Of a stretch of 64,000 bases of DNA, positions 27,097 to 48,113 are shown piece after piece (the first letter of the stretch is position 1; the number at the start of each line of letters is the position of its first letter). Under the pieces are notes generated by a model. That model did no database searches, had not been told where the DNA came from, and was given only the letters and a program-made list of their open reading frames with translations. The stretch spans positions 5,730 through 69,729 of the forward strand of contig JAZNSZ010000018.1 in NCBI GenBank assembly GCA_045591465.1, read 5' to 3'. This stretch comes from Acutalibacteraceae bacterium. Lineage in GTDB: Bacteria > Bacillota > Clostridia > Oscillospirales > Acutalibacteraceae. The translations under genes and the position numbers were made by a program.

Positions 27097-30000
27097 ATGA
27101 AAAAGTTAAAAATATTTTTAAATGACTTAGACCGAAAAAAATTCAATAATATTTCAAAAAGAATTATTTCGGTAGTGCTCGCTGCAACGGTTGTTATTTC
27201 AATATTTGGGCTTTCCAATATTTTTTCTTCAGCGGAAGGCACTATTCCAAATTACCCGTTGCTAAAGTACTTTGAAGATGGCAGTGCGCCTTCTTCAGAA
27301 AGCCCTTGGAAGTTTGGTATTAAGGATTATGGCGTAAAGCCCTTTTTTGCCGAAATAACCGACGGCTACAAAGCGCCTATTGCTGTTTGGGACGCTAACG
27401 ACAGCAAGGCTAATATTAGTTGGGATGCATACACCGATGCTACCGGTTATACCCTTAACATTTACGAAGGCACTACACTTTTACATACCGAAGACCTTAC
27501 AGCCACCACTTGGTCTTCAGGGGCAGACGGTAAAATCGAGGGCGGAAAAACCTACGATATTCAGGTTTTAGCGCTTGATTCTTCTAATAAAGTGATTGCC
27601 GCAACAGCTATTTGCACATTTAATGTGATACAAGCGGCTGGTAATACTACAAGTATTATACAAAATTTTAGTGATGCTACTGTTGTTGATAGCATTACTT
27701 TGGCTAAACATTATCCCAGAAAGTCAATTAACTCTGACGGACAGTTGGTTATTGGCACCACGGCAAATGGTACTTGGGGTGCAGCTACTATACCCGGTGA
27801 TATCAGATGCGATAACGCAAAGGCTGTTACTTTCTTTGTAAAGGCACAAGAAGGTTTAGCATATCAATTTAAGATTGGTTTCGATACTGATTACGCGGGT
27901 AGCGGCAAGTCGGCAGATGCTTATGTTGTGTCTGCAGCAAATCCAAACAATTATATTAGTTCAACCGTTACTTCAACTACAAGTTCAAAAGGTTTTAATG
28001 TAGCGTTTACTGATAAAACTTACGCGGAATACACTGATGGATATTATGTTATAATCCCGTTAAGTATTTACGCGGACGCTACTTTTGGAAAAATCGCAAG
28101 CGGCGGTTATTCTAATTTCTATTTGTCAATTCGAGAGCCTTTTGCTAAGGATGGCAGCGGTCAGTATACTACTTCCGTTTTCGATGGTTCTGACATAATT
28201 GTTGACGATATCGCATTTATTTCCGATATTGATTTATTTATCGAAGATTTGCAAAAAGCAAACAACCCTGGTGGTGGAAGTTCGGATGAAGACGATGAAT
28301 CAACTTCTACCGTAAATAAAAACGAAGTAATCGGTGTAGTTTATGCTGATAAGTTTGAAAACAATAAACTTACAAATGAAGTAGCAGGAACCGGATATAA
28401 CTTTTATGATGAGAATTCTTCGCGTCAAGTAACATTTAATGCTACTTCCGAAGGTTCAAAAGATATCGGCGCACAACTTCGTTTTGTTGCACCTGAAAAA
28501 GGGCTTTATGATTTATCCGGCGCGTTGAGAGTTAAGGATAACGGCGGTGCTACCGATGCTACTGTAAAATACCGCGTTATTAAGATCGATTCTAAAGGTC
28601 AAGAAACTGTTGTATGGGCTAATAATTCAGGCAACTGGGCTACCGGTGATATTACATCCGAAAACCTTACCCCTGCTTTTGCATTCCCTGCAGCTCAGGT
28701 TAGTCTTAATAAGGATGAAGTATTAGCGATAGAAACCTATGTGCACTCAAATGACGGCACAGCCGCTAATGTTGAGTTATCTTTCGGTAACCCAACAACC
28801 ACAGTGGTTGAAGGAACTGTAACATACAAGGGATCTTCTGTTACATATCCGTTTGGCAATTATGCTATAGCAGCGATAAGTGATGGAACTTGGGAGTACA
28901 AGCAACAAACTTCTCGTTGGGAATCGGTTATGTTACATAACGATAACGGCATAGTTACTCATTCTGAATTTGGTGCATTTAAAGTAGATAATGCCAATTA
29001 TGTATTCAACAACGCTCCTACCGGAAAGATAGGTTATTACTACACACCAAAAACAACTGCTTCTCAAATGAAGTTTGATTTAGGTCGTGGCAATTATGGT
29101 GTAGCATTAAAATTCTCTGCACCAACAAGCGGTAATGCTACTATTTTAGTACCAATGCGTGGATATAGCGGAGGCACAATTAAATATCGCGTTACTAAAA
29201 ACGGCGCAACAATTCATCCGGCTGATGCTGCTTGGGCTCCCGTATCTAATAATGATATTGACTTAGCGGTAGATTGTGGTGTAAAAGCTAATGATGTTAT
29301 TGCTATTGAGTTTTACAGTACCAGCAGTGCCAAAGAAGAATTTACATTATCGGATGCTCCGTCAGTTGCAATTTCGGATGGCAGCAGTGCAAACGCACTT
29401 GGAGATAAAACCTTCTCGCCTTTGTGGGAAAGACCGTATAACGGAAATAATTATAGTGGAGAAATTGCTGTTCCTGTAGGTGCGGTATGGAATTTTGGTC
29501 TTTATAATGTTTCAAGCAAAACCGTTGAAGCAGTTGATTTCTATAATTCTAGCAAAAAGATGCTCTATAAAGACGGCATTGCTGATGTTGGATATGTATT
29601 TGAAGATGAACAGCTGAAATTTATTTCCAACGATAGTTACGGTTTATCGCTTTCATATGCTGCCCTCACAAGCGGTTATTATGATTTCAGTACCGCGCTT
29701 AATATCTTGCAAGGAAGCGGAACACTTTATGCAAGGGTTATGGTTGGCGGCAAGAAAGTATGGCCCGAAAGTGAGGATTGGTTCACCGCTGAAAACGCAA
29801 ATGGCACATTCGATGCTATTGAAGTAGGCGTTGAAGCGGGACAGGAAATTGTTCTTCAAGCGTATACTAAGCTTACTGCGGGAGAACAAAATACATCGGG
29901 ACAACCAGCAGACCCAATGGTAATAGGTTTGGGTGCACCTGTTGTTCAGTGTCTTGAAAACCGTGTATTTACCGAAACTGGTAATACGACAGATTATATC

Positions 30001-32745: not shown

Positions 32746-34221
32746 ATGAAAAAAACATTTAGCAGAGCTTTTGCCGTTGTTATTGCGCTTGCGCTCACAT
32801 TAACTGCTGCAGGATGCGGTACTCGTGTTGAAGAACAGAGTGTTTGGGTTGAGGGTGAAGATACCGTACAAACCATTACCCATTCAAGCGGTACAAATTC
32901 TGGCGGTACAAATTCCGGCGGTACAAATTCCGGTGATAAAAATTCCGGTAGTTCTAAAAAAGAAACGGTTTCTACCAACTCTGACGGTATAACCAATGTT
33001 GAAGGTATAGATAAAACTAATGACAAAAAATACAATCTCAAAGGTGCTACTGTTACGATTGGTTACTACAAAGCAGGTGATGGCGGTAAGCCAAATCCTT
33101 CTACCAGCACATATCAAGATGAAGTTAAACTTATAAGTGAAATTGAAAAGAAGTATAATTGTAAAATAGAATTTAAAGATGCTGGCGCTACTGGTTCAAC
33201 TCAATTTTATGGTCTTTGGACCGCAGCTGCTCAGGCAGGTACAAAATTCTGTGATATACTTCAGATTTCAACAGCTGTTGTTTTCCCGACACATATGAAG
33301 GCGGGTTACTTGACAAAGCTTGATGGTTATCTTGATTTGGATAGCGTTATTTATAATCAAACTGCTATGAAACAAACTGCAATCAAAGGTAAACATTATA
33401 TAACAGTTATGTCTAACCGTTTGTATGATACTTTTGGATTCTATTATAACCGTAAGATTTTTGATGCTTTTGGTGTTGATTACCCTGACAAGTATGTAAA
33501 AGCTAACAAGTGGACTTGGGATACATTCGTTGAAATAGCTAAGATAATGACCAATTCTAAGAACGGTGTTCAATACTATGGTTATGCATATCAGAAGAGT
33601 GACGGCGGCAGATGGGCAACTTCTAACGGCACACAAAGAATCATAGAGAAAAACGGAAAATATATATTCAATATGGGTTCCGAAAGCTATCTTAAGGCTC
33701 TCGATTTCACATATGATCTATACAACGTGCATAAGGTTGTCGGAGGTAACTGGGAAGAAGGTAGCGCAGCTATGGTATTCGGTCGACCGAACTTTGGCGC
33801 AGGTTACATGGAATCCTTAGGTGCTAACAACGTTGGCTTTACCTATGCACCAAAGGGCCCAGATGCTAAAGATTTTAATGTAGCAGTTACTGAAACAACT
33901 TCTTGGGCTATCCCATCAACAGTTAAGAATCCTGAAGTTATGGCTAAAATCTTGTACGATTTGACCTATCCTTACAAATGGCGTCGTACACTCTTAGAAC
34001 AACAGGAAGGTAACTTCAACGATTCAACCTCTTTGGAGGTAGCAATGGATATTTGCGTAAAGGGTAATGAAAATATCCGTCTCGAACCTTTGTATTCTTA
34101 TATTCGTGAAATTTCACTTTCCGGTTTCGGTATCGAAGCAGGATTAGAAAGACCCCGCGGATATATTGAAAGTGTTGCAAGTGAAGCACAGGCAGAACTT
34201 GATTCTATTTGGGGTCAGTAA
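32746..34221 (+). CDS. ABC transporter substrate-binding lipoprotein (family 1 type)
   Basis: Lipobox LTAAGC, a Gly/Ser/Asn linker, and an overall SBP-like sequence. Confidence 0.75.
   Translation: MKKTFSRAFAVVIALALTLTAAGCGTRVEEQSVWVEGEDTVQTITHSSGTNSGGTNSGGTNSGDKNSGSSKKETVSTNSDGITNVEGIDKTNDKKYNLKGATVTIGYYKAGDGGKPNPSTSTYQDEVKLISEIEKKYNCKIEFKDAGATGSTQFYGLWTAAAQAGTKFCDILQISTAVVFPTHMKAGYLTKLDGYLDLDSVIYNQTAMKQTAIKGKHYITVMSNRLYDTFGFYYNRKIFDAFGVDYPDKYVKANKWTWDTFVEIAKIMTNSKNGVQYYGYAYQKSDGGRWATSNGTQRIIEKNGKYIFNMGSESYLKALDFTYDLYNVHKVVGGNWEEGSAAMVFGRPNFGAGYMESLGANNVGFTYAPKGPDAKDFNVAVTETTSWAIPSTVKNPEVMAKILYDLTYPYKWRRTLLEQQEGNFNDSTSLEVAMDICVKGNENIRLEPLYSYIREISLSGFGIEAGLERPRGYIESVASEAQAELDSIWGQ
32888..32950 (+). 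repeat. In-frame 15-bp tandem repeat encoding (GTNSG)n in the SBP linker
   Basis: GGCGGTACAAATTCC x3, plus degenerate flanking copies. Confidence 0.8.
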
Positions 34222-34246: not shown

Positions 34247-37009
34247 ATGAGGGACAATAAAACGATAAGATTGACGGCGTTATTTATAGCGGTAGTGATG
34301 CTTTTTAGTATCGCTTTGCCTTGCAGTGCTGAAAAAATTACAACTGTGGGTGACTCACAGGAAAATAATACTAACTCAACCCATGGTGATATCGTTTTCA
34401 TAGATTATATTTCATCATATTCTGATGCGGAATATCCCGAAAAATCTATAACGGTCCTCAATGATGAGAAATCTTTAAAAGAAAATCAAACCCTTGAAAT
34501 CCAATTTGATATTAACCAAAGCGGCTTATACGCCGCTTTGGTGGAATATCGTATTCCAAAAGCGTATGCTTTTACACCGGTTATTTCCTTAGCAATTGAT
34601 GGAGAATTTCCGTATTATGAGGCATCACAAATAGGATTGCCCCAAATTTTTAAAGATACAAAACCTGTTGATAAAAATCAGGTAGAATTGCCTGAACAGG
34701 AAGCGGTATTAGAATATCAAACTCGTTATCTCTTTGATACCGTTGGTTATTATGGTGGATTATTAGAGTTTTACCTCGAAAAAGGCACACATAAACTTAC
34801 TATCGGTGTTGATACAGGTTCGATTGATATTAAATCAATCGTATTTGAAAAATATGATTCCCCAGAAGAATACAAAGCTCCTGAGGGAACCAAATATTCA
34901 GGGGAACCAATTTACATAGAGGCAGAAACACCGACATATAAATCAGATTCTTCGGTTTTTGCAGTGCATGATGCATCATCGCCTGCTGTTAGCCCTTCTT
35001 CCCCATATTCAAAATATCTTAATTCCATTGGAGGAACTTCATGGAAGAATATAGGACAGTATGTTGAATGGGAATTTACTGTTCCTAGCGACGGACTTTA
35101 TAGTCTCGCAATTAAATACCGTCAGAATGAAAATGTCGGTTTAAACAGTTATCGCCGTATACTTATTGACGGTGCGGTTCCATACAAGGAACTTGAAGAA
35201 TATAAATTTGAATACACCAGTACCTTTGTAAATGAAACGCTTTCAGCCAATGGCGAAGCAATGTTATTCCCGCTTAAAAAGGGTAAGCACACAATTCGCA
35301 TGGAGGTTGTTATTGGCGAAAATTCATCGGTACTTCCTTATATAAATGGTATTATAAATACCCTTACTAATGACTATAGACGCATTGTAATGATCGTTGG
35401 TACTTCACCTGATTCTTTGCGTGATTATCAATTAGAAAGCACAATTCCCGAAACACTTGAATCTTTGCAAGAACAATGTAAACTTTTAGAGCAATTAAGA
35501 GACAAGTTGGAAGGTATTTCAGGCAGTAGTTCTGCCGGAACAAAGGCCATGTCAGCCTTAATAGAGCAGTTGAAGGGATTTGCTGTAGATTCCTACTATA
35601 TAACAAAAGGACTTTCTTCCTTTAAATCAAATATTTCTACTCTTAGCACATGGATGTTAAACGCAAAATCACAACCGCTTAAAATCGATTATTCTGTTGT
35701 TTGTGCTGATGAGTCTGATATAAAAGATGCAGAATCAGGATTTTTCGAATCAATGTTGTTTAACATAAAAGCGTTTTTCTTCACTTTTTCGAGTGATTAT
35801 TTGCAAAACACTTTGAGCACAAACAAGAAAAATTCAATTTCGCTTTGGATTACGGGAAGTGCTACCGGTTACGATATTACACAACAGTTAATTCGTGATT
35901 CGTTTAATAAGGAACATCCTGAAATCGAAGTAAATGTACGTCTTGTTGCAGATAGTATTACTCATGGTATTCTTTCGGGTAAAGGCCCAGACCTTAATTT
36001 AGGCGGCTCACCAAGTGAAATCATGAACTATGCTTTCCGTAAACAAGTTGTTGATTTGACAAGATTCGATGATTTTGAAGAGGTGCTTAAACAGTTCCCC
36101 GCATGTTCGATTGACGGTATGCGTTGGGAAGATGCTGTTTATGGTCTTCCGGAAACACAAACCATGCCGATGATCTTCTACCGTAAAGATATTTTAGAAG
36201 AAATGAATCTTGATATACCTGAAACATGGGACGACATTGTTTACTTAATGTCTATGCTTAAAAAGAGCAATCTTGAGTTCGGTATCCCGTATGGTAGCGG
36301 TACATTTATAACTATGATGTATCAACTCGGCGGCACACTTTATAACGAAAAAAATACCGCTACTGCGCTTACCACCTCGGCAGCTATAGAGGCATTTACT
36401 AAATATACAAGTTTTTATACTGATTATAGCGCACCGCTCGCTTATAATGAACAAAACCGTTTCAGGGCAGGCGAAATGCCAATATTATTAGCAAACTTGG
36501 CGTTTTATAATACACTTGAAACATTAGCACCTGAAATTAATGGCAAATGGGGCATAGCTCCATATCCTTGTACCAAACGTGCGGACGGTACACTTGACGG
36601 CACACTCGCTATAGATGTTACAGGTAACTATATACTTAACGAAGAAAAGGCAGATCTCTGTTGGGAATTCTTAAAATGGTGGGTTAGCACTGAAACACAA
36701 TATACATACAGTAATAGACTTGAAATGGCCATTGGTCGTTCAGCACGTCGTATACCTGCCAATACCGAAGCATTAAAGAAACTCGGATGGAACGAAGAAG
36801 TTATCAAAATGATAGATCTTTATCAAGATAGATTTTATGAGTTGCCAAACCTCCCCGGTAGTTACTTCACCGGTCGTCATTTAACAAATGCTTTGGCACG
36901 TGTTGTATATAGCGGAGATGTTCCCGGTGATGCTCTTATGCAGTATGCTGCTATAATCGATGCAGAACTTGAATACCGCCGTGAATATTTCGGTTTCGGT
37001 AAAGAATAG
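34247..37009 (+). CDS. Large secreted protein: CBM6/35-like modules fused to a C-terminal ABC substrate-binding domain
   Basis: Signal peptide. GQYVEWEFTVPSDGLYSLAIKYRQ...ILIDG is typical of CBM6/35. The C-terminal 400 aa resemble a family 1 SBP. Confidence 0.65.
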   Translation: MRDNKTIRLTALFIAVVMLFSIALPCSAEKITTVGDSQENNTNSTHGDIVFIDYISSYSDAEYPEKSITVLNDEKSLKENQTLEIQFDINQSGLYAALVEYRIPKAYAFTPVISLAIDGEFPYYEASQIGLPQIFKDTKPVDKNQVELPEQEAVLEYQTRYLFDTVGYYGGLLEFYLEKGTHKLTIGVDTGSIDIKSIVFEKYDSPEEYKAPEGTKYSGEPIYIEAETPTYKSDSSVFAVHDASSPAVSPSSPYSKYLNSIGGTSWKNIGQYVEWEFTVPSDGLYSLAIKYRQNENVGLNSYRRILIDGAVPYKELEEYKFEYTSTFVNETLSANGEAMLFPLKKGKHTIRMEVVIGENSSVLPYINGIINTLTNDYRRIVMIVGTSPDSLRDYQLESTIPETLESLQEQCKLLEQLRDKLEGISGSSSAGTKAMSALIEQLKGFAVDSYYITKGLSSFKSNISTLSTWMLNAKSQPLKIDYSVVCADESDIKDAESGFFESMLFNIKAFFFTFSSDYLQNTLSTNKKNSISLWITGSATGYDITQQLIRDSFNKEHPEIEVNVRLVADSITHGILSGKGPDLNLGGSPSEIMNYAFRKQVVDLTRFDDFEEVLKQFPACSIDGMRWEDAVYGLPETQTMPMIFYRKDILEEMNLDIPETWDDIVYLMSMLKKSNLEFGIPYGSGTFITMMYQLGGTLYNEKNTATALTTSAAIEAFTKYTSFYTDYSAPLAYNEQNRFRAGEMPILLANLAFYNTLETLAPEINGKWGIAPYPCTKRADGTLDGTLAIDVTGNYILNEEKADLCWEFLKWWVSTETQYTYSNRLEMAIGRSARRIPANTEALKKLGWNEEVIKMIDLYQDRFYELPNLPGSYFTGRHLTNALARVVYSGDVPGDALMQYAAIIDAELEYRREYFGFGKE

Positions 37010-37019
37010 AAAGGAGTGA

Positions 37020-37922
37020 ATGGAATTGTATACTAAATTGAAAAAAGGCTTTAAAAAACATAGAATGTCAATTCTATTTGCTTTACCTTTTTTAACATTG
37101 TTTTTCATATTTACTGTTGTTCCTGTGCTTATGGCGTTGGGATTAAGTTTCACAAAATACGACGTGTTACAACCGCCGGAATTTGTAGGCATAAAGAATT
37201 ATCTTATGCTTTTCCTTGAAGATGATGTATTTATTACAGCGGTTAAGAACACAGTTCTGTTTGCTTGTATATATGCACCGCTTTCCATGATTGCATGTAT
37301 GGGTGTTGCGTGGATAATTAACGATTATTCGCATAAGACCAGAACTGTTCTTACCTTTGTTTTCTATGCCCCCTCACTTTCGGGTGGTATGATGGCTATA
37401 TGGGGAATTTTGCTTAGCGGCGACGCTTATGGTGTTGTTAATAATGTGTTGATGAGTCTTGGACTAATATCTTCACCGAACCAATGGCTTACAAACCCCA
37501 AATATATGTTTACAATACTTATTATCGTATCCCTTTGGGGATGCCTGGGAACAGGATTTTTGTCCTTCGTTGCAGCGTTTAAGGGACTTGATGTTTCTCT
37601 TTACGAAGCTGCTGCTATGGACGGTATAAAAAATCGTGTTCAGGAACTTTGGTATATTACATTACCTGCACTTAAACCACAACTTATATTTACAGCGCTT
37701 ACTTCTATTACAGGTGGTTTTGGCGTAGGTGGTGTTAGTAGCGCACTCTTTGGGAACCCCAGTACTAACTACGCAGCACATACTATTGCTTTGCATATGC
37801 AAGATTATGCAGGAACAAGAATGGACCACGGTGTAGCTTGCGTTATGGCGGTTATATTATTCTTTATGATGGTTGGTTCAAATAATCTTTTCCGTAAGTT
37901 TGTCGGAAGAATAGGAAGGTAA
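37020..37922 (+). CDS. Sugar ABC transporter permease (MalF/LplB type)
   Basis: Six TM segments and an EAA-like loop (YEAAAMDGIKNRVQELWYITLP). Confidence 0.9.
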   Translation: MELYTKLKKGFKKHRMSILFALPFLTLFFIFTVVPVLMALGLSFTKYDVLQPPEFVGIKNYLMLFLEDDVFITAVKNTVLFACIYAPLSMIACMGVAWIINDYSHKTRTVLTFVFYAPSLSGGMMAIWGILLSGDAYGVVNNVLMSLGLISSPNQWLTNPKYMFTILIIVSLWGCLGTGFLSFVAAFKGLDVSLYEAAAMDGIKNRVQELWYITLPALKPQLIFTALTSITGGFGVGGVSSALFGNPSTNYAAHTIALHMQDYAGTRMDHGVACVMAVILFFMMVGSNNLFRKFVGRIGR

Positions 37923-37926
37923 CGGT

Positions 37927-38784
37927 ATGGCAAAGGATAAAAGAAACCGTCTTAACCGAAGTTTAGGTGGTAATGCAGTTACATTTTTTGTAATTATCAT
38001 TCTAGGCCTTTTCATGCTTGTTCCGATGATATATGTTGTCGGAAATGCATTTAAACCTATTGAAGAACTTTACCGTTTCCCGCCTACTTTGTTTGTTCAA
38101 ACCCCCACAACAAAGAACTTTACTAACATGTTCAATTTGCTTAATGAAACAACAATGCCGTTTATGCGTTATTTCTTTAATACAATTTTGCAGACAGCGG
38201 TAGCAAGTGTGGGACAAATAGTATTTGCTTCGCTTTGTGCATATTCACTTGCAAAAATCCCATTCCCTGGTAGTAATGCAATATTTAAAGTTATTGTTTT
38301 TTCACTTATGTTTTCGGGTACAGTTACTTCGGTACCAACATACATAATCTATGTAAAACTTGGACTTATAGATACATATGCAGGTATGCTTTTACCAACT
38401 TTGGTAAGCACTATGGGATTTTATCTTATTAAGCAGTTTATGCATACTAATGTTCCAAACGAGTTGCTTGAAGCAGCGCGTATTGACGGTGCATCGGAAC
38501 TTAATGTTTTCTTTAAAATAGTAATGCCACTTTTGAAACCCGCGTGGTATACACTTGTAATTTTATCTATTCAAAACTTGTGGGGTGCCGGTGCGTCACA
38601 TACCTATCGCGAAGTTTTCAAAACATTGCCGCAAGCACTTTCTCAAATTTCGGCGGGTGGTATTGAAAGAACAGGTGTTAGTTCTGCTGCGACACTAATA
38701 ATGTTAGTAGTACCTATCGGCTGTTTCGTAATTATGCAGTCGAAAATTGTCGATACAATGAGTTCTGCGGGACTTAAAGGCTGA
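37927..38784 (+). CDS. Sugar ABC transporter permease (MalG/LplC type)
   Basis: EAARIDGASELNVFFKIVMPL EAA motif in a polytopic protein. Confidence 0.9.
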   Translation: MAKDKRNRLNRSLGGNAVTFFVIIILGLFMLVPMIYVVGNAFKPIEELYRFPPTLFVQTPTTKNFTNMFNLLNETTMPFMRYFFNTILQTAVASVGQIVFASLCAYSLAKIPFPGSNAIFKVIVFSLMFSGTVTSVPTYIIYVKLGLIDTYAGMLLPTLVSTMGFYLIKQFMHTNVPNELLEAARIDGASELNVFFKIVMPLLKPAWYTLVILSIQNLWGAGASHTYREVFKTLPQALSQISAGGIERTGVSSAATLIMLVVPIGCFVIMQSKIVDTMSSAGLKG

Positions 38785-40274
38785 TGGAAAGGAAATTATA
38801 TATGAAAAAAATATGTAGTATTTTGGCAGTTGTAGTTTTTGTTCTTTTATCAGCTTTGCCAGTATCGGCTTCGACAGCGGAGGTTCCGTACGAAAATTAT
38901 ATTTATTCCGAATCTGATAAAAGTGCAATTCCTTGCCCTCAGGCATATCTTCCAAGTGTTGAAATATTCGGCTCTTCTTTAGGAATAGGGGAAATGAAAT
39001 CTCCAACCGATTTGGATGCAGACGATAATGGCGACATTTATATACTTGATACGGGCAATAATCGCGTTGTAGTTTTAAACAGCGATTTGTCATTAAAGAA
39101 AACTTTCGATTGCACTGTAAAGTTGGAAGATGGCACAAAATCGTTACTTGATGGCGCACAGGGTATCGCTGTTACGGAAGACTGTTTCTATGTATGCGAT
39201 ACTAATAACAACCGTATTTTAATATTCAATAAAACAAATGGTGAGTATATAAAAAGCATTGGTGCGCCAACAGCAAGTTCGCTCGGTGAAGATTTTATAT
39301 TTAAACCAACAAGATTAGATGTTGATGAAAAGGGCAACCTTTATATAGTTGGTAATGGTGTATATGAAGGAATTCTCAATCTTAATGCTAACGGTGAATT
39401 TTTAGGATTCTTTGCTAGTAATAAGGTATCGACATCGGCATGGGATTTGTTTTGGAGAAACTTTTCTACTATAGAACAGCGTAAAAAGATGGTACAGTTG
39501 GTGCCACAAGATTTTTCCAGCATTGATATGGACGATGAAGGTTTTTTCTTTGTGACAACCTTTACCGCTGTTGGCGGCTCTATGGTTAAAAGAGTTAATC
39601 CCGGCGGAAATAACGTTATCAGACAAATGTCTTCCATAAATACCGCGGGAGATCCTGCTAAATATTATAGTGGTTCACTTGCAGGAAAAAGCAGTTTTTC
39701 TGACGTAGCTGCCGGTCGTTATAAAATCTATGCTTGTCTTGATAAAACTCGTGGTAGAATTTTCTGCTACAACAATGACGGGTATATGATATACAATTTT
39801 GGCATATTAAGTGACCGTACCGGTGGATTTTTAAATCCGGTTGCGGTGACATATCTTGATGATGAGAGAATTGCTGTTTTAGATACCGTAGCTAATTCGG
39901 TTACGGTTTTTGAACCCACTGAGTATGCAAAAAGCATTAATTTAGGCGTAAAATATCTCAACGAGCTTAATTATGATGCGGCACATGCCGAATGGGGAAA
40001 AGTGTTGACGCAGAACGGAAATTTTGAATTGGCACTTAACATGATAGGCCGTTCATATTTTAATAACGGTGAATATGAAAAAGCGATGGAATACTTTCAA
40101 AAATCAAGCAACAATGAGATGTATTCCAATGCAAAAAAGACTTTACGTTCAAAACGCATATATGAATATTCGTGGCTAATAGTAGCTGTTATTGTAGTTT
40201 TGATTTTAGTGCTTATTTGGCGTTTTATTATGCGCTTAATCAAAAAAAATAACAGACAATATGATTATGATTGA
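38784..40274 (+). CDS. Secreted NHL-repeat beta-propeller protein with TPR-like region and C-terminal TM anchor
   Basis: NHL motifs DIYILDTGNNRVVVL, FYVCDTNNNRILIF and IAVLDTVANSVTVF. C-terminal TM segment WLIVAVIVVLILVLIW. Alternative start at 38802. Confidence 0.7.
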   Translation: MERKLYMKKICSILAVVVFVLLSALPVSASTAEVPYENYIYSESDKSAIPCPQAYLPSVEIFGSSLGIGEMKSPTDLDADDNGDIYILDTGNNRVVVLNSDLSLKKTFDCTVKLEDGTKSLLDGAQGIAVTEDCFYVCDTNNNRILIFNKTNGEYIKSIGAPTASSLGEDFIFKPTRLDVDEKGNLYIVGNGVYEGILNLNANGEFLGFFASNKVSTSAWDLFWRNFSTIEQRKKMVQLVPQDFSSIDMDDEGFFFVTTFTAVGGSMVKRVNPGGNNVIRQMSSINTAGDPAKYYSGSLAGKSSFSDVAAGRYKIYACLDKTRGRIFCYNNDGYMIYNFGILSDRTGGFLNPVAVTYLDDERIAVLDTVANSVTVFEPTEYAKSINLGVKYLNELNYDAAHAEWGKVLTQNGNFELALNMIGRSYFNNGEYEKAMEYFQKSSNNEMYSNAKKTLRSKRIYEYSWLIVAVIVVLILVLIWRFIMRLIKKNNRQYDYD

Positions 40275-40289
40275 AAATAGGTGCTTTTT

Positions 40290-40916
40290 ATGCAAGAAAT
40301 GATTAAAGGTCTGCTTCATACCTTTTATATTCTTTCACATCCTTTTGATGGCTTTTGGACAATGAAAAGCGAAAAGAAAGGAAACTTAAGATCTGCATTT
40401 TTAATACTTTTGCTTTTGGTAATTACAACTGCTATTCGTATTTTGTTAAGCGGTTATCTTTTTACTTCGAAAACTCTTTTACAATTTTCAATATGGATAT
40501 TAGCATTGTTAATTGTGGTTTGTGTCTTGCTTTATTGTGTTGCCAACTGGGCGCTAACTACGCTTTTTGAAGGAAAAGGAAAAATTTCCGAAATATTTAT
40601 TGCTCTTATGTATTCGCTAACACCCATTATAATTGCAAACATTCCTATTACTGTTATGACACATATCGTTGTTGCAAATGAAGCAGCTTTTGTGTCTTTT
40701 GTAAATGTACTATCAGTAATTTGGGCAGTATTTTTATTGCTTGTCGGAAACCTGACGATACATGAATATACAATGATTAAAAGTATAATTTCAGTAGTAT
40801 TTACCGGTTGTGCGATGATTGCGATTGCTGTGTTGCTTATACTTGGCTGTAACCTTATACAACAGGTTTGGATATGGGTAGTCTCAATAATTAAGGAAAT
40901 AGTGTTAAGATTGTAA
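40290..40916 (+). CDS. Yip1-family integral membrane protein
   Basis: N-terminal HPFDGFW followed by 5 TM segments. AGGTG RBS before the ATG at 40290. Confidence 0.6.
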   Translation: MQEMIKGLLHTFYILSHPFDGFWTMKSEKKGNLRSAFLILLLLVITTAIRILLSGYLFTSKTLLQFSIWILALLIVVCVLLYCVANWALTTLFEGKGKISEIFIALMYSLTPIIIANIPITVMTHIVVANEAAFVSFVNVLSVIWAVFLLLVGNLTIHEYTMIKSIISVVFTGCAMIAIAVLLILGCNLIQQVWIWVVSIIKEIVLRL

Positions 40917-40941
40917 TGTAATGACTTTATGAAGGAGCCGT

Positions 40942-43458
40942 ATGATGAAAAATCATATACTAAAAGGGATAGTTGCTATACTGACGGCGTTGTTAATACC
41001 TGTAACATTATGTGCGAATGCACAACCCGCCGTACTTGATTCACAAAATACATCGAGCACATCCAAACCGACTGAAGGTTTTGAAGAGGTGCTTCAAAAC
41101 GATAATTATATCCTTTTTTTCAATAGTGCAACTGCTGATGCTGCACTTACCGATAAAAAGACAGGGCAGACTATATATACAACACCTATCGGTAAAGAAA
41201 GTGATGTATTAGCTGCCGGCGGAAATATAAATAATTTAAGAAGCCAGGTTGTAGTCTATTATTATAAAGATAAGACTGTTCTTTCAATGAATAGTTTTAT
41301 GGATTGTTTGCAACAGCAGGGTATAGAGTATGAAGTCGCTAATGATACCCTTTCTGTCACTTATAATATTGGCGATACCAGTTTTTCGGCAAATATACTT
41401 CCACGTGCTATCACTAAGAAAAGAATGGAAGAAAAAATTCTTTCAAAATTAAGTGAAGAAGATGCACAAAAAGTATTAAATCGTTATAAACTTTATTCAC
41501 GTGATGAACTTGATGCTGAAGCGCTCAAAAGTATACGTCTTAATTTCCCCGGAATCGATAAGGATGACCTCTATATCAGAGCAAAGATAGCTGATTATAT
41601 TGCTGAGGATTTATGGGGATTATTTGAAAGCGTAGGATATACTACTGAAGATTTGCAGATTGACTGCGATGAAGTTGGTATAGAAAATACATACGTAGAA
41701 AAGGCTAAATTTAAAATTACTCTTGAGTATAATCTTACCGATGATGGATTCTCGGTAAAGATGGATCCGAAAAAGGTAGAGTATCTTCAAGAGTATAAAC
41801 CTTTCCGTATCGAAATATTACCCTTCTTATGTGCGGCAGATAGTTCGCATGAGGGATTTATATTTGTTCCGGACGGCAGTGGCTCTATTATAAATTTCAA
41901 TAATGGAAAAACTTCGGCTAATGGTTATTGGAAAGACCTTTTTAATCACGATGCTGCTATAACTAAGGATGAAAATTTAAATGATGCACAGTTGTCGGTG
42001 TTGCCGGTATTTGCTTTATCATCAGATGATTACGGAATCCTAGCTACTATTGACAGTGGTTATGAGTCTGCGGGAATTGCGGCTGATATTTCGGGCAAGT
42101 TTAATTCCTACAATTATGTGTATCCGTTCTTTGGAATGGTAGCCGTTGATGAAGTTTCACTTACAAAGCAAGAATTAGATGCATTTATTCTAATGAGTGA
42201 AGACCTTATATCAACAGAAATAAAAGTATCATATCATCTTACTAAAGGTGGAGCTACTTATAGCGATTTGGCGCTTTTGTATCGTGATATTTTAAAGAAA
42301 AATGGAACACTTCCAAAAACCGCTAAGTCGGATAACTCCGACCTTAATATCGACTTTATTACAAGTGCTTATGTAACTAAGCGTTTCCTTGGAATCCCAT
42401 ATAGAACAATAACTTCTCTTACTACATATAATCAAGCAGCTGAAATACTTAATGGAATTTCTGATATTTCTGCGGATGTAACGCTTGTTAATGCGCTTTC
42501 CGGCGGTATAAATCAGTCTTCCAATAATAAGATTAAGTTTTTATCTTGTCTTGGTTCTAAGAAAGAAAGAGAAAACTTAAGTTCTATTGCAAATAATCTT
42601 TCAGTTTCTTATTATGCGCAACGAGCACGTAATATCAAAAATTCTCACAGAACAAAAGCTATCAATCGTAGTAACATAAATTCATTTATGTATAACATTG
42701 TAAGCAGATATTATGAAAAAACGAATGTTATGAGATTTTTGTCATCTTCAAAACTTACTGACTATGCTAAAAAAATCAATAAGTCTATTGCGGCAAATAA
42801 TCTTTCATCTGTGAATATTCTTGATTTAGGGTATGAGCTTAACAGTGATTTCAACGTTAAAAACCAATATGATAGGGTAGAAGCGCGTCAAGAAGTTGAA
42901 AAATATCTTGAAACTGTTTCTGAAAAAACACGCCTTACTGTTGATACAGGTTCATACTTCTCACTTAAATATGCTTCTAAAATTAAAAATATACCTACCA
43001 CACACAGTGGGTATAAAATTAATGATTACGCCGTTCCATTCTATCAAATTGTTATAAGCGGCAGTATTCCGTACACAGTACCTTCGATTAACCAAAGTCA
43101 TGATATGCAAACTGCGTTCTTAAAAGCAGTTGAAATCGGAGCGCAATTACAGTGTACTTGGATTTATGAGAATGCAGATAACATTATAGATACACGTGAA
43201 AAATATTACGGTGTTCTCTATGAAGGTTCGATAGAGCAAATTGCCGGATATGCTCGTGACTATCGTGATGTGTACGCTAAAATTTCAAAAAGTGCAATTT
43301 CGGAGCACAAAATATATTCCGAAACACTTACCAAAACCGAATATGAAAACGGTATTGCTGTATATGTAAACTATGGCGAAAAATCCGCATCGGTTGATGG
43401 TATAGTTGTAGAACCGAAAGACTTTTATGTAAAGGATGGTGGAAACAGTGTGGAATAA
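40942..43458 (+). CDS. Large secreted protein of unknown function (resembles proteins I recall being annotated DUF5696)
   Basis: Signal peptide and a FIFVPDGSGSII motif. The family assignment is from memory only. Confidence 0.5.
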   Translation: MMKNHILKGIVAILTALLIPVTLCANAQPAVLDSQNTSSTSKPTEGFEEVLQNDNYILFFNSATADAALTDKKTGQTIYTTPIGKESDVLAAGGNINNLRSQVVVYYYKDKTVLSMNSFMDCLQQQGIEYEVANDTLSVTYNIGDTSFSANILPRAITKKRMEEKILSKLSEEDAQKVLNRYKLYSRDELDAEALKSIRLNFPGIDKDDLYIRAKIADYIAEDLWGLFESVGYTTEDLQIDCDEVGIENTYVEKAKFKITLEYNLTDDGFSVKMDPKKVEYLQEYKPFRIEILPFLCAADSSHEGFIFVPDGSGSIINFNNGKTSANGYWKDLFNHDAAITKDENLNDAQLSVLPVFALSSDDYGILATIDSGYESAGIAADISGKFNSYNYVYPFFGMVAVDEVSLTKQELDAFILMSEDLISTEIKVSYHLTKGGATYSDLALLYRDILKKNGTLPKTAKSDNSDLNIDFITSAYVTKRFLGIPYRTITSLTTYNQAAEILNGISDISADVTLVNALSGGINQSSNNKIKFLSCLGSKKERENLSSIANNLSVSYYAQRARNIKNSHRTKAINRSNINSFMYNIVSRYYEKTNVMRFLSSSKLTDYAKKINKSIAANNLSSVNILDLGYELNSDFNVKNQYDRVEARQEVEKYLETVSEKTRLTVDTGSYFSLKYASKIKNIPTTHSGYKINDYAVPFYQIVISGSIPYTVPSINQSHDMQTAFLKAVEIGAQLQCTWIYENADNIIDTREKYYGVLYEGSIEQIAGYARDYRDVYAKISKSAISEHKIYSETLTKTEYENGIAVYVNYGEKSASVDGIVVEPKDFYVKDGGNSVE

Positions 43459-44368
43459 AATTAAACGTAATCCGTTTGAGGCCATGAGTCTTAAGGATAA
43501 GGAAGCAACAAAAAGCTACCTGTTTTTCATCCCTCTTATAATAGGTCTTATAATATTTTTCATTATTCCAACTGTTAAATCGTTCCTTTTTAGTATAAGT
43601 GATGTTACAAGCGGTGCAGGTGGATATAGTTTTTCTATTACAGGTATCGCCGCTTATAAAGAGGCGTTAATGTCGCACGGAAGTTATAGACAAACGGTTG
43701 TTAAGTCGGCAATGGAAGTTGTAACTCAAACACCATTGATTATACTTTTCAGTTTCTTTATGGCATCCGTTCTTAATCAAAACTTTAAGGGAAAGACTTT
43801 CTTTAGAGTAGTGTTTTTCCTGCCTGTTATTTTAACCGTTATGAATGTTCATACTAGTTCAATGGAAGATAATATGGGTGCATTTTCAAGTTATAAAAGC
43901 ACTGAAGAAACAGTGGTATCCTTTACTTCACAAATAACCGAGTTTTTAATACAGGCCGGTTTAGGAGAAGATATCGCGGGAAGTATCACAAGTATAGCGG
44001 ATAGTGTTTATGATGTTATTTCGCTATCTGCAATACAGATTCTTATTATGCTAATCGGTATGCAGGCAATATCTCCCTCACTTTATGAGGCTGCCAGAGT
44101 AGAAGGCGCTACTGGATGGGAAAGTTTTTGGAAGATTACTGTTCCCATGGTAAGCCCGATGATTATGACTTGTGTTATATACACTATCATCGATTCATTT
44201 ACGGCAACCGGAAATAAAGTTATGACGCTTATGTCAGATACCGCTTTTAATAATTTGAATTTCTCCTTAGGTTCGGCTATGGGTTGGATATACTTTGCAC
44301 TAATTGCAGTTATTTTGGCAATAGCGGCATGGTTATTCTCTAAAGTTGTTTTAAAATATGATTCGTGA
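43436..44368 (+). CDS. Sugar ABC transporter permease (second pair)
   Basis: YEAARVEGATGWESFWKITVPM EAA motif. The start is uncertain (ATG at 43436 or GTG at 43449). Confidence 0.85.
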   Translation: MVETVWNKIKRNPFEAMSLKDKEATKSYLFFIPLIIGLIIFFIIPTVKSFLFSISDVTSGAGGYSFSITGIAAYKEALMSHGSYRQTVVKSAMEVVTQTPLIILFSFFMASVLNQNFKGKTFFRVVFFLPVILTVMNVHTSSMEDNMGAFSSYKSTEETVVSFTSQITEFLIQAGLGEDIAGSITSIADSVYDVISLSAIQILIMLIGMQAISPSLYEAARVEGATGWESFWKITVPMVSPMIMTCVIYTIIDSFTATGNKVMTLMSDTAFNNLNFSLGSAMGWIYFALIAVILAIAAWLFSKVVLKYDS

Positions 44369-44380
44369 GGTGAATGAGTT

Positions 44381-45331
44381 ATGAAAAAATTAACACTGAA
44401 CGAACCGATGTTGAAAAAGAAAGCCGTGCCATTTTTATGGTCGGCGGTGCGATTGGTATTACTGATAGGTATAAGTTACACTATATTGTATCCATTATTT
44501 GCAAAAATGGCTCTTATGTTTATGGATGCAAAGGATTTAAGTGACTTCTCCGTAAAATGGATACCGCGTCATTTTACATTGGCAAACTTAAAAATCACCG
44601 TTACGATACTTGACTATTGGCAAGCATTGGCAAAAAGTATTGGCATAAGTTTTCTAATAGCATTGTTACAGGTTACGGTATGCACATTGTCGGCTTATGG
44701 TTTTTCGCGTTATCGTACAGCTGGTAAAAAGTTATTGTTTGGCGTAGTTATTGCAACACTTTTAATTCCGCCACAAACTTATATAGTAACACTTTATACT
44801 CAACTCCAACATTTTGATATATTTGGATTAGTTAAACTTTTCAATGGTAGTGGAATAAATTTACTTGATTCTGTATGGTCATTTATTATTCTTGCGGCAA
44901 CGGGTATGGGTATTAGAAGTGGACTTTATATCTATGTTGAGAAACAAACATTTTCGGCCTTGCCTAAAGAACTTGAGGAGGCAGCAAAGGTTGACGGCGC
45001 AGGAATGTTTAAAACCTTTACGTCAATAATGCTTCCTAACGCTATACCTACAATTGTTATGTGCTTTATACTTTCTTTTGTATGGCAATGGAATGATACG
45101 TTTTACACAACGTATTTTGCTCCAAAATTAGGCACTCTTTCTATGAAGATAGGTAGGATGCACGCGCTTGTAAGTGATTATCTTGGCGGATGGGAATTAC
45201 GGGTTTCTTCTGAATCTCAAATGCTTGCAAGTGTTGGTGTATTCTTGTGTGTGCTACCGCTTATTGTTCTTTTTATTTTCGGTCAGCGATATTTCGTTCA
45301 AGGTGTTGAACGTTCAGGCTTAGTAGGGTAA
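44381..45331 (+). CDS. Sugar ABC transporter permease (second pair)
   Basis: EEAAKVDGAGMFKTFTSIMLP EAA motif in a polytopic protein. Confidence 0.85.
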   Translation: MKKLTLNEPMLKKKAVPFLWSAVRLVLLIGISYTILYPLFAKMALMFMDAKDLSDFSVKWIPRHFTLANLKITVTILDYWQALAKSIGISFLIALLQVTVCTLSAYGFSRYRTAGKKLLFGVVIATLLIPPQTYIVTLYTQLQHFDIFGLVKLFNGSGINLLDSVWSFIILAATGMGIRSGLYIYVEKQTFSALPKELEEAAKVDGAGMFKTFTSIMLPNAIPTIVMCFILSFVWQWNDTFYTTYFAPKLGTLSMKIGRMHALVSDYLGGWELRVSSESQMLASVGVFLCVLPLIVLFIFGQRYFVQGVERSGLVG

Positions 45332-45359: not shown

Positions 45360-48113
45360 ATGAAAAAATTGAAAATGACGTTAGCTTTGTTTTTGGCGAT
45401 TTGTCTGGGTTTTTGCAGTGTAGCCTGCAAGAAAAACGAATCGTCGGGCAATTCCGGTACCCAATCAGGTGTTAATGGCGGCTATTCTTCCAGCACAGAG
45501 GAAAATTATGATGATACCGTAAATGATTGGCAGGAAAACGGAAGCAATCAAGGAGATTTTGATAATACTGTCAATAACGATACTCCAACTCCTACACCCA
45601 CTCCAGGACAAACAGGTGATGATGAATTAATCAATCTTAACAAACCTCAAGAAGACGAACAGGAGGAAGAAGAGGAAGAAGAGGAAGAAGAGGAAGAAGA
45701 GGAAGAAGAACGCGTTTTCGAAGAATCGGCGCTCGCAGACCCTAATGCACTTAAGTATTATTATGAGGGTAGCTGTTATGCATATGGTATCGACGCAGAA
45801 GGCAGAGAATGTATAGCGTTTAAAAGTAAAGCCGGCGAATTGCTCGATGTACTTAGAGGCGCAGGAAAATTCAACTTAAAAACAAGTAGCGGTCTTTTAG
45901 TTGCAGGTACAGGGGAAATTGTATCGTTTAAGCAAACTATGAAAGATGCTTTTAACGGATTGATTATTGATTATGCAGTTGAGGGTTTAGATGCTGAAAC
46001 ATCTATAATTCAATATACTTATCTCTTTAAGGAAAATTGTATTTCTGTTTCGGCCCACATTAATGCTAATACAAATCGTACTATCGCAGCGAGCACATCA
46101 ACTTTCAACAGAATGTTCCTTACTGATTACTTAAATGAACAACATTTGTTAAATGCTGATTGGATATATCCAGCAAATGGTGACTATCCGTATCAAGAAT
46201 TTGAAAGTTTGTGTTTTAGAACACAACTTACAAAAGATGTTTATCTTTATTCTTTCCAACGCGGTGAACAAATAAGAACAGAGTATAGTGATGAAAAATG
46301 GAGTAGCGCTAAGATGCCGCTTACAATGGAAGATGCTCAAGGTCTGTTCTATACGCATGAATATGATATAACATTTGTTGATACTTTATACGAAAAAAAT
46401 GAAGGCGCTGATTATCGCGGACTTTTCAAAGGTCTTAATTCTGATTTTGCAGCTGGAATTGCTCCTATAAAAGCAACTGAAGATAACTCCACTTTGTTTA
46501 TCGGTAATTCAGTTGACCTTAATATCAATGTTACAAACCTTACCGATGACGACCTTACTTTTAGTCTTAGATATGATGTACGCGATTATTATGGTAATAT
46601 TGTATCAAAGGGATTGTTTATTAACAGCACGGCATATCAGTACGCAAGTGCGAATCGTACTATTAATGTATCCGGCAAATACGGAATATATTATCTAAAC
46701 CTTTATGTTATTTCAAAATATTCGACTTATGTTGAGTGTTATCCGTTTGCATTGCTTGAAGATTATACATATAAGTATAATGCTACAAGCCCATGGGGAT
46801 TAACTTCACCAAACACAAAAAATGATACAGAGGGTAGAAATACTGGAAGACTGTTTGCAAAAATCGGTGTTTCAAATTTCCGTATCAATCCTATTTATAG
46901 AGCTACATATGAAGAATGTATAAAGCTTGGAATAAACAGATTTAATACTCTTACACTTACGAACTTTGGTGAACAAACTGAAAAAGCATATATGAAAACC
47001 GTAATCGAAAGAATTGAGGATGAGGCAGATGTCACCTTAGCGGTTGAGAACGGAAACGAATCCAACCTTGCGGTTATAAGTGGAACAACCCAAGAAATAT
47101 ACGATAGGTATGTTGCCTTCTATAAGCACATGTTCTTACCGGTATATTCATATATGAGAAAAAATTATCCAAACCTTAAGTATATACCTTCTCCATTCTC
47201 AGCTGGTCAGCAGGAATGGATAGATTGTCTTGTTACAGGCGTTAAAGTAGATAATGATGGTGACGGAATAAAGGAAACCACTCTTGCTGAACCTATTTGG
47301 GATTTAGTTGATGCTGTATCTACTCACGTATATGGTACACCTTGGATGCCTGATAACTACGGAACATATAAACCGGCATACAAAGCAGGTTTATGGCATA
47401 TTGAACCCGCACTTCAGCGATTGCAGGAATGTCTTGGAAAGTATCTTCAAGCTGATGGAACAGAAAAGGATTTATATATAACTGAAGTAGGATATGCTAC
47501 TTATCCTGGTATAGAAACATCAATCGATCTTCGTACCCATGCTGATTATAACGTTCGTTCAGGAATTTTATGTTCGGCATACGGTGCTGATGTTATCCAG
47601 TATTACTGTACCTTTGATAAAAAGACTTGGGGTTCGGGATACGACCCTGTAGATAAAGAGTGGAACTTCGGTGCTTTTTATCAACATGATTATTACGGTC
47701 GTATTAAGCCAAAACCATGGGGCGTTGCATATGCAAGTATGACCCGTCTACTTGAAAGTATTGAAAAGAATTCGATGCATACTTATGACAAGTATGACGA
47801 AGGTTATGATAAAGCCGGCGTTCGTGCTTTCAAATGTAAAACTGCATTAAATGGCGATGTTGTAATTGCTTGGTCTAACTATGAAGTACTTTCAAACGGC
47901 AAAAAGGATGCCTCATCCCAGGTGGGTCTTAGAGTTCCTAATTTGCCTTGGAATAATCAATGGGAAAAGGTTGATGAAACTGTATTTGATGCCAAGGGTG
48001 ATACCGTTACCGTTATTGATATAATGGGTAATAAAACCACATATAAGGCAAAAGACGGTAAGGTAACAATACCGCTCTCAGGTTCACCTGTGTATCTTTT
48101 AGGTGTGAAATAA
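45360..48113 (+). CDS. Lipoprotein paralog of 22327-24873: putative extracellular clan GH-A-like glycoside hydrolase with PT and poly-Glu linker
   Basis: Lipobox CSVAC. Shares the FAAGIA...LNINVTN...YYLNLYV block, ENGNES and ITEVGYA motifs, and the C-terminal DTVTVIDIMGNK...GSPVY block with the paralog. Confidence 0.55.
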   Translation: MKKLKMTLALFLAICLGFCSVACKKNESSGNSGTQSGVNGGYSSSTEENYDDTVNDWQENGSNQGDFDNTVNNDTPTPTPTPGQTGDDELINLNKPQEDEQEEEEEEEEEEEEEEEERVFEESALADPNALKYYYEGSCYAYGIDAEGRECIAFKSKAGELLDVLRGAGKFNLKTSSGLLVAGTGEIVSFKQTMKDAFNGLIIDYAVEGLDAETSIIQYTYLFKENCISVSAHINANTNRTIAASTSTFNRMFLTDYLNEQHLLNADWIYPANGDYPYQEFESLCFRTQLTKDVYLYSFQRGEQIRTEYSDEKWSSAKMPLTMEDAQGLFYTHEYDITFVDTLYEKNEGADYRGLFKGLNSDFAAGIAPIKATEDNSTLFIGNSVDLNINVTNLTDDDLTFSLRYDVRDYYGNIVSKGLFINSTAYQYASANRTINVSGKYGIYYLNLYVISKYSTYVECYPFALLEDYTYKYNATSPWGLTSPNTKNDTEGRNTGRLFAKIGVSNFRINPIYRATYEECIKLGINRFNTLTLTNFGEQTEKAYMKTVIERIEDEADVTLAVENGNESNLAVISGTTQEIYDRYVAFYKHMFLPVYSYMRKNYPNLKYIPSPFSAGQQEWIDCLVTGVKVDNDGDGIKETTLAEPIWDLVDAVSTHVYGTPWMPDNYGTYKPAYKAGLWHIEPALQRLQECLGKYLQADGTEKDLYITEVGYATYPGIETSIDLRTHADYNVRSGILCSAYGADVIQYYCTFDKKTWGSGYDPVDKEWNFGAFYQHDYYGRIKPKPWGVAYASMTRLLESIEKNSMHTYDKYDEGYDKAGVRAFKCKTALNGDVVIAWSNYEVLSNGKKDASSQVGLRVPNLPWNNQWEKVDETVFDAKGDTVTVIDIMGNKTTYKAKDGKVTIPLSGSPVYLLGVK
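45658..45711 (+). repeat. In-frame 9-bp tandem repeat (GAGGAAGAA)n encoding a run of about 17 Glu
   Basis: Read directly at 45658-45711. Confidence 0.85.

Follow-up and report, generated by a model that had tools for sequence, protein, structure and literature searches.

Three adjacent genes in a 64,000-nucleotide stretch of an Acutalibacteraceae genome (hereafter the window; GenBank assembly GCA_045591465.1, contig JAZNSZ010000018.1, positions 5,730 to 69,729) make up the constant core of a sugar-import operon that is widespread among Gram-positive bacteria of gut and soil and of which we found no published description. They lie on the + strand and encode a 496-amino-acid (aa) protein with NHL and TPR repeats (38784..40274; NHL E 1.2e-15, TPR_2 E 2.7e-7), a 211-aa Yip1-family protein with about five transmembrane (TM) helices (40281..40916; PF04893 E 2.8e-12), and an 838-aa protein of the DUF5696 family (40942..43458; PF18952 E 2.3e-137). 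An earlier reading of the same DNA, made without database searches (the sequence-only reading), had reported these three open reading frames (ORFs) and the order of the genes around them on one strand, and both the coordinates and the Pfam matches confirm it. The window carries one complete nine-gene 'twin importer' cassette, which runs from the gene of a small substrate-binding protein (SBP) through permD, with permease pairs on both sides of the trio (37020-38784 and 43436-45331). The order on the + strand is small SBP, giant SBP, permA, permB, NHL-TPR, Yip1, DUF5696, permC and permD, followed by the gene of a 917-aa lipoprotein.

The cassette belongs to an unbroken run of + strand genes in the ORF listing of the window (27097-48113), in which the intergenic gaps are, in order, 24, 25, 10, 4, -1, 6, 25, -23, 12 and 28 nt. 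The sequence-only reading had put these gaps at 0-30 nt; the tight packing holds, and the measured range is -23 to +28 nt, the lowest value being a 23-nt overlap of the permC start with the DUF5696 stop. A scan for promoters and terminators between 30000 and 49500 returned nothing above shuffled expectation.

Conservation of the trio beside a permease pair

In order to compare loci, we classified the ORFs around DUF5696 genes by their similarity to the window's own proteins. The loci came from 20 genomes of the same genus and order, from Paenibacillus montanisoli, and from 17 further genomes of 14 families taken from an even sample of the phylum. A first set of 41 loci was joined by two further loci, giving 43 from at least 20 families. 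An NHL-TPR(-Yip1) gene is immediately upstream of DUF5696 in all 43, and permC is immediately downstream in 42, the remaining one being a contig end. The complete permC-permD pair directly follows DUF5696 in 40 of the first 41 loci, and the other stops at a contig edge. The giant SBP-permA-permB block immediately precedes the NHL-TPR(-Yip1) gene in 31 of the first 41 loci, and in one more where permB is split into two ORFs, and the window's order from giant SBP to permD is also present in one of the two further loci. This block is located after permD in three loci and was not found within the ~20 kb fetched in five, of which four have only NHL-TPR-Yip1, DUF5696, permC and permD (three of these four plus a small SBP). 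Given these placements of the giant SBP-permA-permB block, the trio belongs foremost to the downstream pair, permC/permD, and in gene order the NHL-TPR(-Yip1) and DUF5696 genes are inseparable from it. An arrangement that recurs in the same order in 43 loci is far beyond chance.

The sequence-only reading had described the trio as syntenic with ABC permease pairs, which is true in every related locus examined, in Clostridia as well as in Paenibacillus. It had also said that a lack of synteny in relatives would refute its interpretation, and we looked for this and found the order kept in the 43 loci. Its description of the trio as 'wedged between' two pairs is accurate in that pairs flank the trio on both sides, but the pairs are unequal and the trio is bound to the downstream one.

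Genome-wide occurrence gave the same picture. DUF5696 (above the Pfam cut-off) and permD-type permeases (E <= 1e-25) were both present in 28 of 41 related genomes and both missing in the other 13, with no exception. The sequence-only reading had named a co-occurrence check of the three families with permease pairs, and for DUF5696 and the permD type the outcome is a match in 41/41 genomes that, as these genomes share kinship, is not a statistical test. Copy numbers of DUF5696 and the permD type also agree, with 13 versus 13 in G014 and 6 versus 6 in both G009 and G026; the few mismatches are all in fragmented assemblies. The cassette is present in about 8% of the even phylum sample (32/401 genomes, 18/277 genera), with up to 13 copies in a single 2.3-Mb genome.

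These observations bear directly on the simplest alternative, namely that the three genes are unrelated passengers sharing an operon with two ordinary ABC importers. Passengers would not be expected to keep a fixed order in 43 loci across at least 20 families, to be fused two out of three in most loci (see below), or to match the permD type perfectly in genome-wide presence and absence, and we consider this explanation highly improbable.

Some individual loci have their own peculiarities. In L076 (G005:C107), permD stands at the operon front, before the giant SBP, and permC alone follows DUF5696. In L077 (G002:C43), permC is kept after DUF5696 with no permD adjoining it. A second DUF5696 cassette in the window's own genome is broken over two contigs (C20:237-1682 and C24:1-1718); one, of 2 kb, holds a DUF5696 fragment with a TGA inside it, and the other starts with permC/permD. 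In the loci of the phylum sample, an Omp85 domain is present in one protein encoded beside a cassette, which suggests that the carriers may include at least one diderm, a phylum member with two membranes.

A scaffold protein and a glycosidase-like ectoprotein

Alignment identifies the window's NHL-TPR and Yip1 genes as collinear halves of one protein that is fused in most loci. A single gene of ~700 aa encodes both parts in 30 of the first 41 loci and in both further loci (32/43 in total), the two are split as in the window in 10/43, and the Yip1 part was undetected in 1/43. In alignments with the fused homologue P0347, the window's NHL-TPR protein (residues 1-492) corresponds to residues 1-495 (E 4e-85) and the window's Yip1 protein (residues 16-211) to residues 506-701 (E 3e-36). 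The split point falls in a short cytoplasmic linker past the first TM helix, and the two window genes are 6 nt apart. The sequence-only reading of a three-gene trio is thus correct for the three ORFs found here; in most genomes, with the scaffold fused in 32/43 loci, it is a duo. The NHL-TPR protein has a signal-like N-terminus and a C-terminal TM helix (465-483) followed by a basic tail. The Yip1 protein scores 47.3 bits against a threshold of 28.6, covers PF04893 model positions 2-172 of 173 with its ~5 hydrophobic helices, and is encoded by the sole Yip1 gene found in the genome assembly.

The AlphaFold2 (AF2) model of fused P0347 (pLDDT 88, pTM 0.76) places a propeller at 32-379, TPR helices at 381-441, and a long helix at 445-491 that enters the membrane, followed by two short cytoplasmic helices and then five TM helices. 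The propeller has a six-bladed NHL fold (TMt 0.80 to the TRIM71 NHL domain) and, by fold match, resembles the NHL domains of TRIM71, Brat and PknD at TMt 0.76-0.81, a fold modelled on P0347 (34% identical) and not on the window's own protein. None of its structural neighbours was a carbohydrate-active enzyme. As modelled, the propeller is a plain NHL domain of the binding type, and the scaffold as a whole is predicted to combine a six-bladed propeller outside the cell with TPR helices and a membrane domain of six helices.

The DUF5696 protein matches PF18952 with 459.5 bits (cut-off 25.6) over model positions 2-612 of 612, and belongs to a family of 4,124 clusters at 50% identity (E <= 1e-3). 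It has a single N-terminal hydrophobic helix and carries the motif FVPDGSGS at residues 308-315. Among 150 representatives of the family, a hydrophobic segment is present at the N-terminus of 140 and a further TM segment in none, and DUF5696 proteins are thus surface-exposed and either N-terminally anchored or exported.

The sequence-only reading had asked for a fold search of the 838-aa protein, and this revealed a hidden GH129/GH101-like glycoside hydrolase (GH) fold. The AF2 model (pLDDT 90.9, pTM 0.87) was matched best by Foldseek to DagB (5opq; E 7e-28, TMt 0.68) and second to NagBb (5wzn; E 7e-23, TMt 0.71), with GH101 and then GH36 and GH31 enzymes ranked lower. While a search of the PDB with the 838-aa sequence alone gave no match, a profile of 66 DUF5696 sequences matched DagB (5opq/8rzg) at E 7e-12 over three collinear stretches and the GH129 enzyme NagBb (5wzn) at E 2e-5. 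These profile matches are confined to ~130 residues where the barrel begins and, for DagB, also take in both flanking domains, and a broader 148-sequence profile returned the same three stretches without reaching the catalytic region. The model has the three-domain fold with a central (beta/alpha)8 barrel that characterizes GH129; its identity to DagB and NagBb is 11-13%, which is below family-level similarity. Based on the model, DUF5696 is a distant relative of the GH129/GH101 glycosidases with the same three-domain fold. The sequence-only reading had allowed that the protein might simply be a known GH family member; it belongs to no known GH family and is only a remote relative of the GH129/GH101 fold.

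Two characterized enzymes offer the closest comparison: NagBb, an alpha-N-acetylgalactosaminidase of GH129 (5WZN), and the GH129-like 3,6-anhydro-D-galactosidase DagB/ZgGH129 of Zobellia (5OPQ; 8RZK, the D486N variant with substrate). DUF5696 shares with both an N-terminal beta-sandwich, a (beta/alpha)8 barrel and a C-terminal beta-sandwich. Unlike them, it is ~180 residues longer, with a helical insert at ~156-250 and an N-terminal membrane anchor, it keeps the Asp at the end of beta4 in only 43% of members, and it has no residue matched to their acid/base Glu (E478 in NagBb; E517/E531 in DagB, PMC5698469).

A group of 600-690-aa ORFs with weak matches (E ~1e-4) in several genomes of the genus was considered as a source of additional DUF5696 members and rejected. 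The one inspected, the own-genome copy (L003, on contig C47), is by sequence a GH13 glycogen-branching enzyme, and its weak DUF5696 match spans the part with the GH13 beta3 motif. This weak match fits a distant link between the two barrels.

Proposed role at the importer and its alternatives

We propose that the scaffold and DUF5696 form a membrane-tethered unit that processes or holds glycans and is dedicated to the downstream importer, a reading of their function that we regard as evenly balanced between right and wrong. From the gene fusion, the fixed order, the matched copy number and the topology we infer, along with the sequence-only reading, a putative complex of the proteins or a transfer of substrate between them. 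In this arrangement, the Yip1 membrane domain would dock on the permC/permD translocator, much as YknW does on YknYZ, and would hold the propeller/TPR arm and the DUF5696 ectodomain above it. DUF5696 would bind the incoming oligosaccharide, and the copy in the window, in which D628 and a whole set of polar residues are kept, would probably also trim it. The product would then pass to the small SBP and on to permC/permD, while the giant SBP with permA/permB would provide a further channel for import, one that is more conserved and usually accompanies the trio.

The precedent is YknW of the Bacillus YknWXYZ system, a Yip1-family accessory protein that is reported to influence how the transporter complex assembles (PMC4887032). 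Like the window's protein, it is a polytopic Yip1-domain protein encoded in an ABC transporter operon. However, the YknWXYZ system is an exporter of the MacB type and includes a membrane fusion protein, whereas the partner in the window is a type I importer, and unlike YknW the window's Yip1 domain pairs with, or in fused homologues carries, a large extracellular propeller/TPR arm.

The candidate catalytic residues bear on whether DUF5696 cuts glycans or holds them. DagB requires D202, D486, E517 and E531, and NagBb uses D435 and E478 (PMC5698469). In the DUF5696 model, strand beta4 spans 623-626 and D628 follows two residues later, in the usual place of the nucleophile by topology; the residue spacing from the aligned stretch also lands near D628. 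Position 628 is Asp in 62/66 close homologues, and the window protein belongs to a supported clade of 40 sequences, 38 of them with D628 retained. A soil Paenibacillus (locus L004, from P. montanisoli) is an example of a carrier of this split, Asp-keeping cassette type. In most other cassettes of the window's genus, position 628 is T, S or N. For the acid/base residue (E478 in NagBb), one candidate is D668, located at the end of beta5 and 40 residues past D628, in a column that is acidic in 82/191 members; D695, kept in 161/191, is another. Positions 628 and 668 are not coupled, the latter being acidic in 26 of the 83 members with Asp at 628 versus 56 of the 108 without.

Other polar positions are conserved more widely. 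Among the 191 members, D311 (the D of FVPDGSGS) is kept in 170, D337 in 176, R645 in 178, N717 in 185, E731 in 181, H789 in 173, D636 in 174 (plus 14 with Asn) and D695 in 161. The window protein has the full set (D311, D337, D636, R645, D695, N717, E731 and H789), and its pattern is the commonest one (50/191). D636 and D695, which are 59 residues apart, a spacing shared with GH36 and GH31 enzymes, are alternative catalytic candidates. Judged from these residues, the window's DUF5696 copy ranks with those family members for which activity is most likely.

Several observations weigh against a processing unit as we have drawn it. A profile of DUF5696 residues 596-750, the catalytic half, returned only chance matches against the PDB, and the equation of D628 with D486 of DagB and D435 of NagBb comes from strand position and sequence spacing only. 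Across the 191 members, position 628 is D in 83, T in 34, S in 30, N in 14 and Y in 10, and on a FastTree tree the switch between Asp and non-Asp requires at least 17 changes. The propeller, for its part, resembles NHL domains that bind or sense, which would fit a sensing role too. With Asp in only 83/191 members, the function that all cassettes share does not need D628, and we dropped D628 as a nucleophile for the whole family.

The main rival is a DUF5696 that cuts nothing, in the window as elsewhere, and instead acts as a glycosidase-shaped glycan holder (a pseudo-enzyme) that positions chains for the importer. The residue at the canonical nucleophile place is non-acidic (T, S, N, Y or other) in 106/191 members, and the repeated switching of its state on the tree speaks for a holder as well. 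In loci L049-L052, from the same genus, D311 has changed to S, D695 to Y/I and H789 to N/S/Y together, with the whole cassette retained, so that these copies likely represent non-catalytic lineages. The many different linkages addressed by the neighbouring enzymes are also hard to square with one conserved chemistry. On the other side stand the well-supported clade of the window protein with its retention of D628, and the complete polar set of this copy. The conservation of D636, D695, E731, R645, N717 and H789 (each 84-97%) points the same way, although a binding site would conserve them alike. We judge a purely holding DUF5696 in the window to be somewhat unlikely. A sensor role, like mere co-location, ranks below it.

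In the sensor alternative, NHL-TPR-Yip1 and DUF5696 would form a surface sensor or regulator that reports the presence of glycan or gates the importer. Among the structural neighbours of the propeller is the kinase PknD's extracellular sensor domain (1rwl, E 5e-11), and AraC-type regulators are located near some cassettes. However, a signalling domain on the cytoplasmic side is absent from all three proteins, whose cytoplasmic parts are short linkers, and a one-to-one copy number with the permease pair suits a structural subunit better. We therefore regard a sensor as improbable.

The proposed processing or holding unit could also be part of something larger, in which all nine products form one super-complex of the cytoplasmic membrane, with the scaffold bridging the two importers and carrying the GH129-fold ectoprotein above them. 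Capture, trimming and import would then be mechanically coupled, DUF5696 would be a new GH family with active and inactive lineages, and the whole would be a Gram-positive counterpart, built from unrelated parts, of the Bacteroidota Sus 'utilisome'. We offer this extension tentatively and hold it to be rather unlikely. In the SusC/SusD 'utilisome', glycan binding, surface processing and import are co-encoded, and many copies occur beside different enzymes. The analogy is functional only; the proteins are unrelated, and the Sus system is TonB-dependent and located in the outer membrane, in contrast to an ABC importer of the cytoplasmic membrane.

Importer components, neighbouring enzymes and implications

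The remaining cassette genes encode the parts of type I ABC sugar importers. The first permease pair comprises permA (37020..37922, +; BPD_transp_1 E 2.3e-9), with the EAA loop YEAAAMDG, and permB (37927..38784, +; BPD_transp_1 E 1.9e-6), with its EAA loop at residue 182. The second comprises permC (43436..44368, +; BPD_transp_1 E 3.1e-8; EAA loop at residue 218) and permD (44381..45331, +; BPD_transp_1 E 6.9e-16; EAA loop at residue 200). All four permeases thus have the loop on which the ABC ATPase docks. The sequence-only reading had noted the absence of an ATPase gene from the operon, and no ABC ATPase lies on the whole 75-kb contig either. The source assembly (1.32 Mb, 91% complete) is that of a Clostridia member with a small genome, and the closest homologues that carry a name are from metagenome-assembled genomes of Acutalibacteraceae. 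In this assembly, a MalK/MsmX-type ATPase with ABC_tran, OB_MalK and TOBE_2 domains is encoded by an orphan gene on contig C37 whose neighbours encode a peptidase and a pseudouridine synthase, and a second, more distant relative is on contig C32. The orphan MsmX-type ATPase would power the importers. One ordinary sugar permease pair is found elsewhere in the same genome, on contig C40.

Both SBPs are encoded upstream. SBP491, the small sugar-binding protein, is a 491-aa lipoprotein (32746..34221, +) with the lipobox LTAAGC. It has no Pfam match, but matches solved sugar SBPs (4rk2 E 8e-5; AbnE 6rjy E 4e-4). In 21 of the first 41 loci a relative is encoded either directly after permD or before the giant SBP, and SBP491 probably partners permC/permD. 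The 920-aa giant SBP (34247..37009, +) combines a conserved N-terminal half of ~520 aa without an assigned fold with an SBP domain (SBP_bac_8 E 2.3e-18, residues 551-828). In the relatives' loci checked, its orthologues align over residues ~80-917, the N-terminal half included. The sequence-only reading had labelled this half a carbohydrate-binding module (CBM). Pfam gave it no CBM family at E <= 5, and the label is left unverified.

The window proteins have diverged from their counterparts to different extents. Median identity is 45% for permA, 43% for permB, 34.5% for permC, 35.5% for permD, 30-31% for the giant SBP, NHL-TPR and Yip1, 25% for DUF5696 and 24.5% for the small SBP. DUF5696 therefore diverges as fast as a classical specificity element, and the fast divergence of both proteins is consistent with contact with the substrate. 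The enzymes beside the cassette also vary. In a Pfam scan of the 43 largest among 144 flanking ORFs, we found GH3 three times, GH26, GH2 and GH106 twice each, and in addition GH78, GH38, GH35, apiosidase-like, CBM35 and CBM4_9 domains. This variation from locus to locus suggests that the cassette is a general chassis for many glycans.

In the window, the gene following permD encodes an enzyme-like 917-aa lipoprotein (45360..48113, +) with the lipobox FCSVAC and the motifs VENGNESN and YITEVGY, which is a neighbour and not a fixed part of the cassette. An 848-aa paralogue is encoded at 22327-24873 (E 2e-105), and neither protein has a Pfam match at E <= 5. In the family alignment, E709 (within YITEVGY) is invariant and N566-E567 are nearly invariant, and over the nucleophile motif YITEVGY the family profile has a weak match to PslG (E 0.055), an enzyme of clan GH-A. 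The 917-aa lipoprotein is a probable clan GH-A-type glycosidase, and with its 848-aa paralogue it may represent an unclassified glycosidase family. The sequence-only reading of a GH-like lipoprotein is in line with the weak GH-A-type match, but the family has no Pfam model of its own. At the other end of the run, a gene on the same strand 24 nt ahead of the small SBP encodes an 1874-aa protein (27097-32721, +) with an N-terminal signal and a C-terminal TM helix, and is probably co-transcribed with the cassette.

With its EAA-loop permease pairs, two SBPs and an off-operon MalK-type ATPase, the system resembles CUT1-type importers (TC 3.A.1.1) that share an MsmX/MalK ATPase. In both, the SBPs are lipoproteins or otherwise anchored, every translocator has two BPD_transp_1 permeases that both carry an EAA loop, and the operon is free of an ATPase gene, with an orphan MalK-type ATPase elsewhere in the genome. 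Unlike these importers, the window's operon has two translocators and adds a 920-aa SBP extended by a conserved N-terminal half, a membrane protein with propeller, TPR and Yip1 parts, and an ectoprotein of GH129 fold. We know of no described CUT1 system with these extra parts. A literature search returned no paper on DUF5696/PF18952, nor on Yip1 with NHL repeats and permeases, and what the sequence-only reading suggested, an accessory system, as yet uncharacterised, for glycan uptake in Gram-positive bacteria, stands.

Oligosaccharide uptake by fibre-degrading Gram-positive bacteria in gut and rumen is thought to rely on simple ABC importers of three or four parts. To such an importer the cassette adds three conserved surface and membrane parts, described in no paper that we found. 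Lineages of DUF5696 that keep the Asp at position 628 and lineages that lack it provide a natural experiment. If the cassette is indeed a processing-and-import machine, it would change models of glycan uptake in Bacillota as well as the annotation of their polysaccharide loci, and it could add one glycoside hydrolase family.

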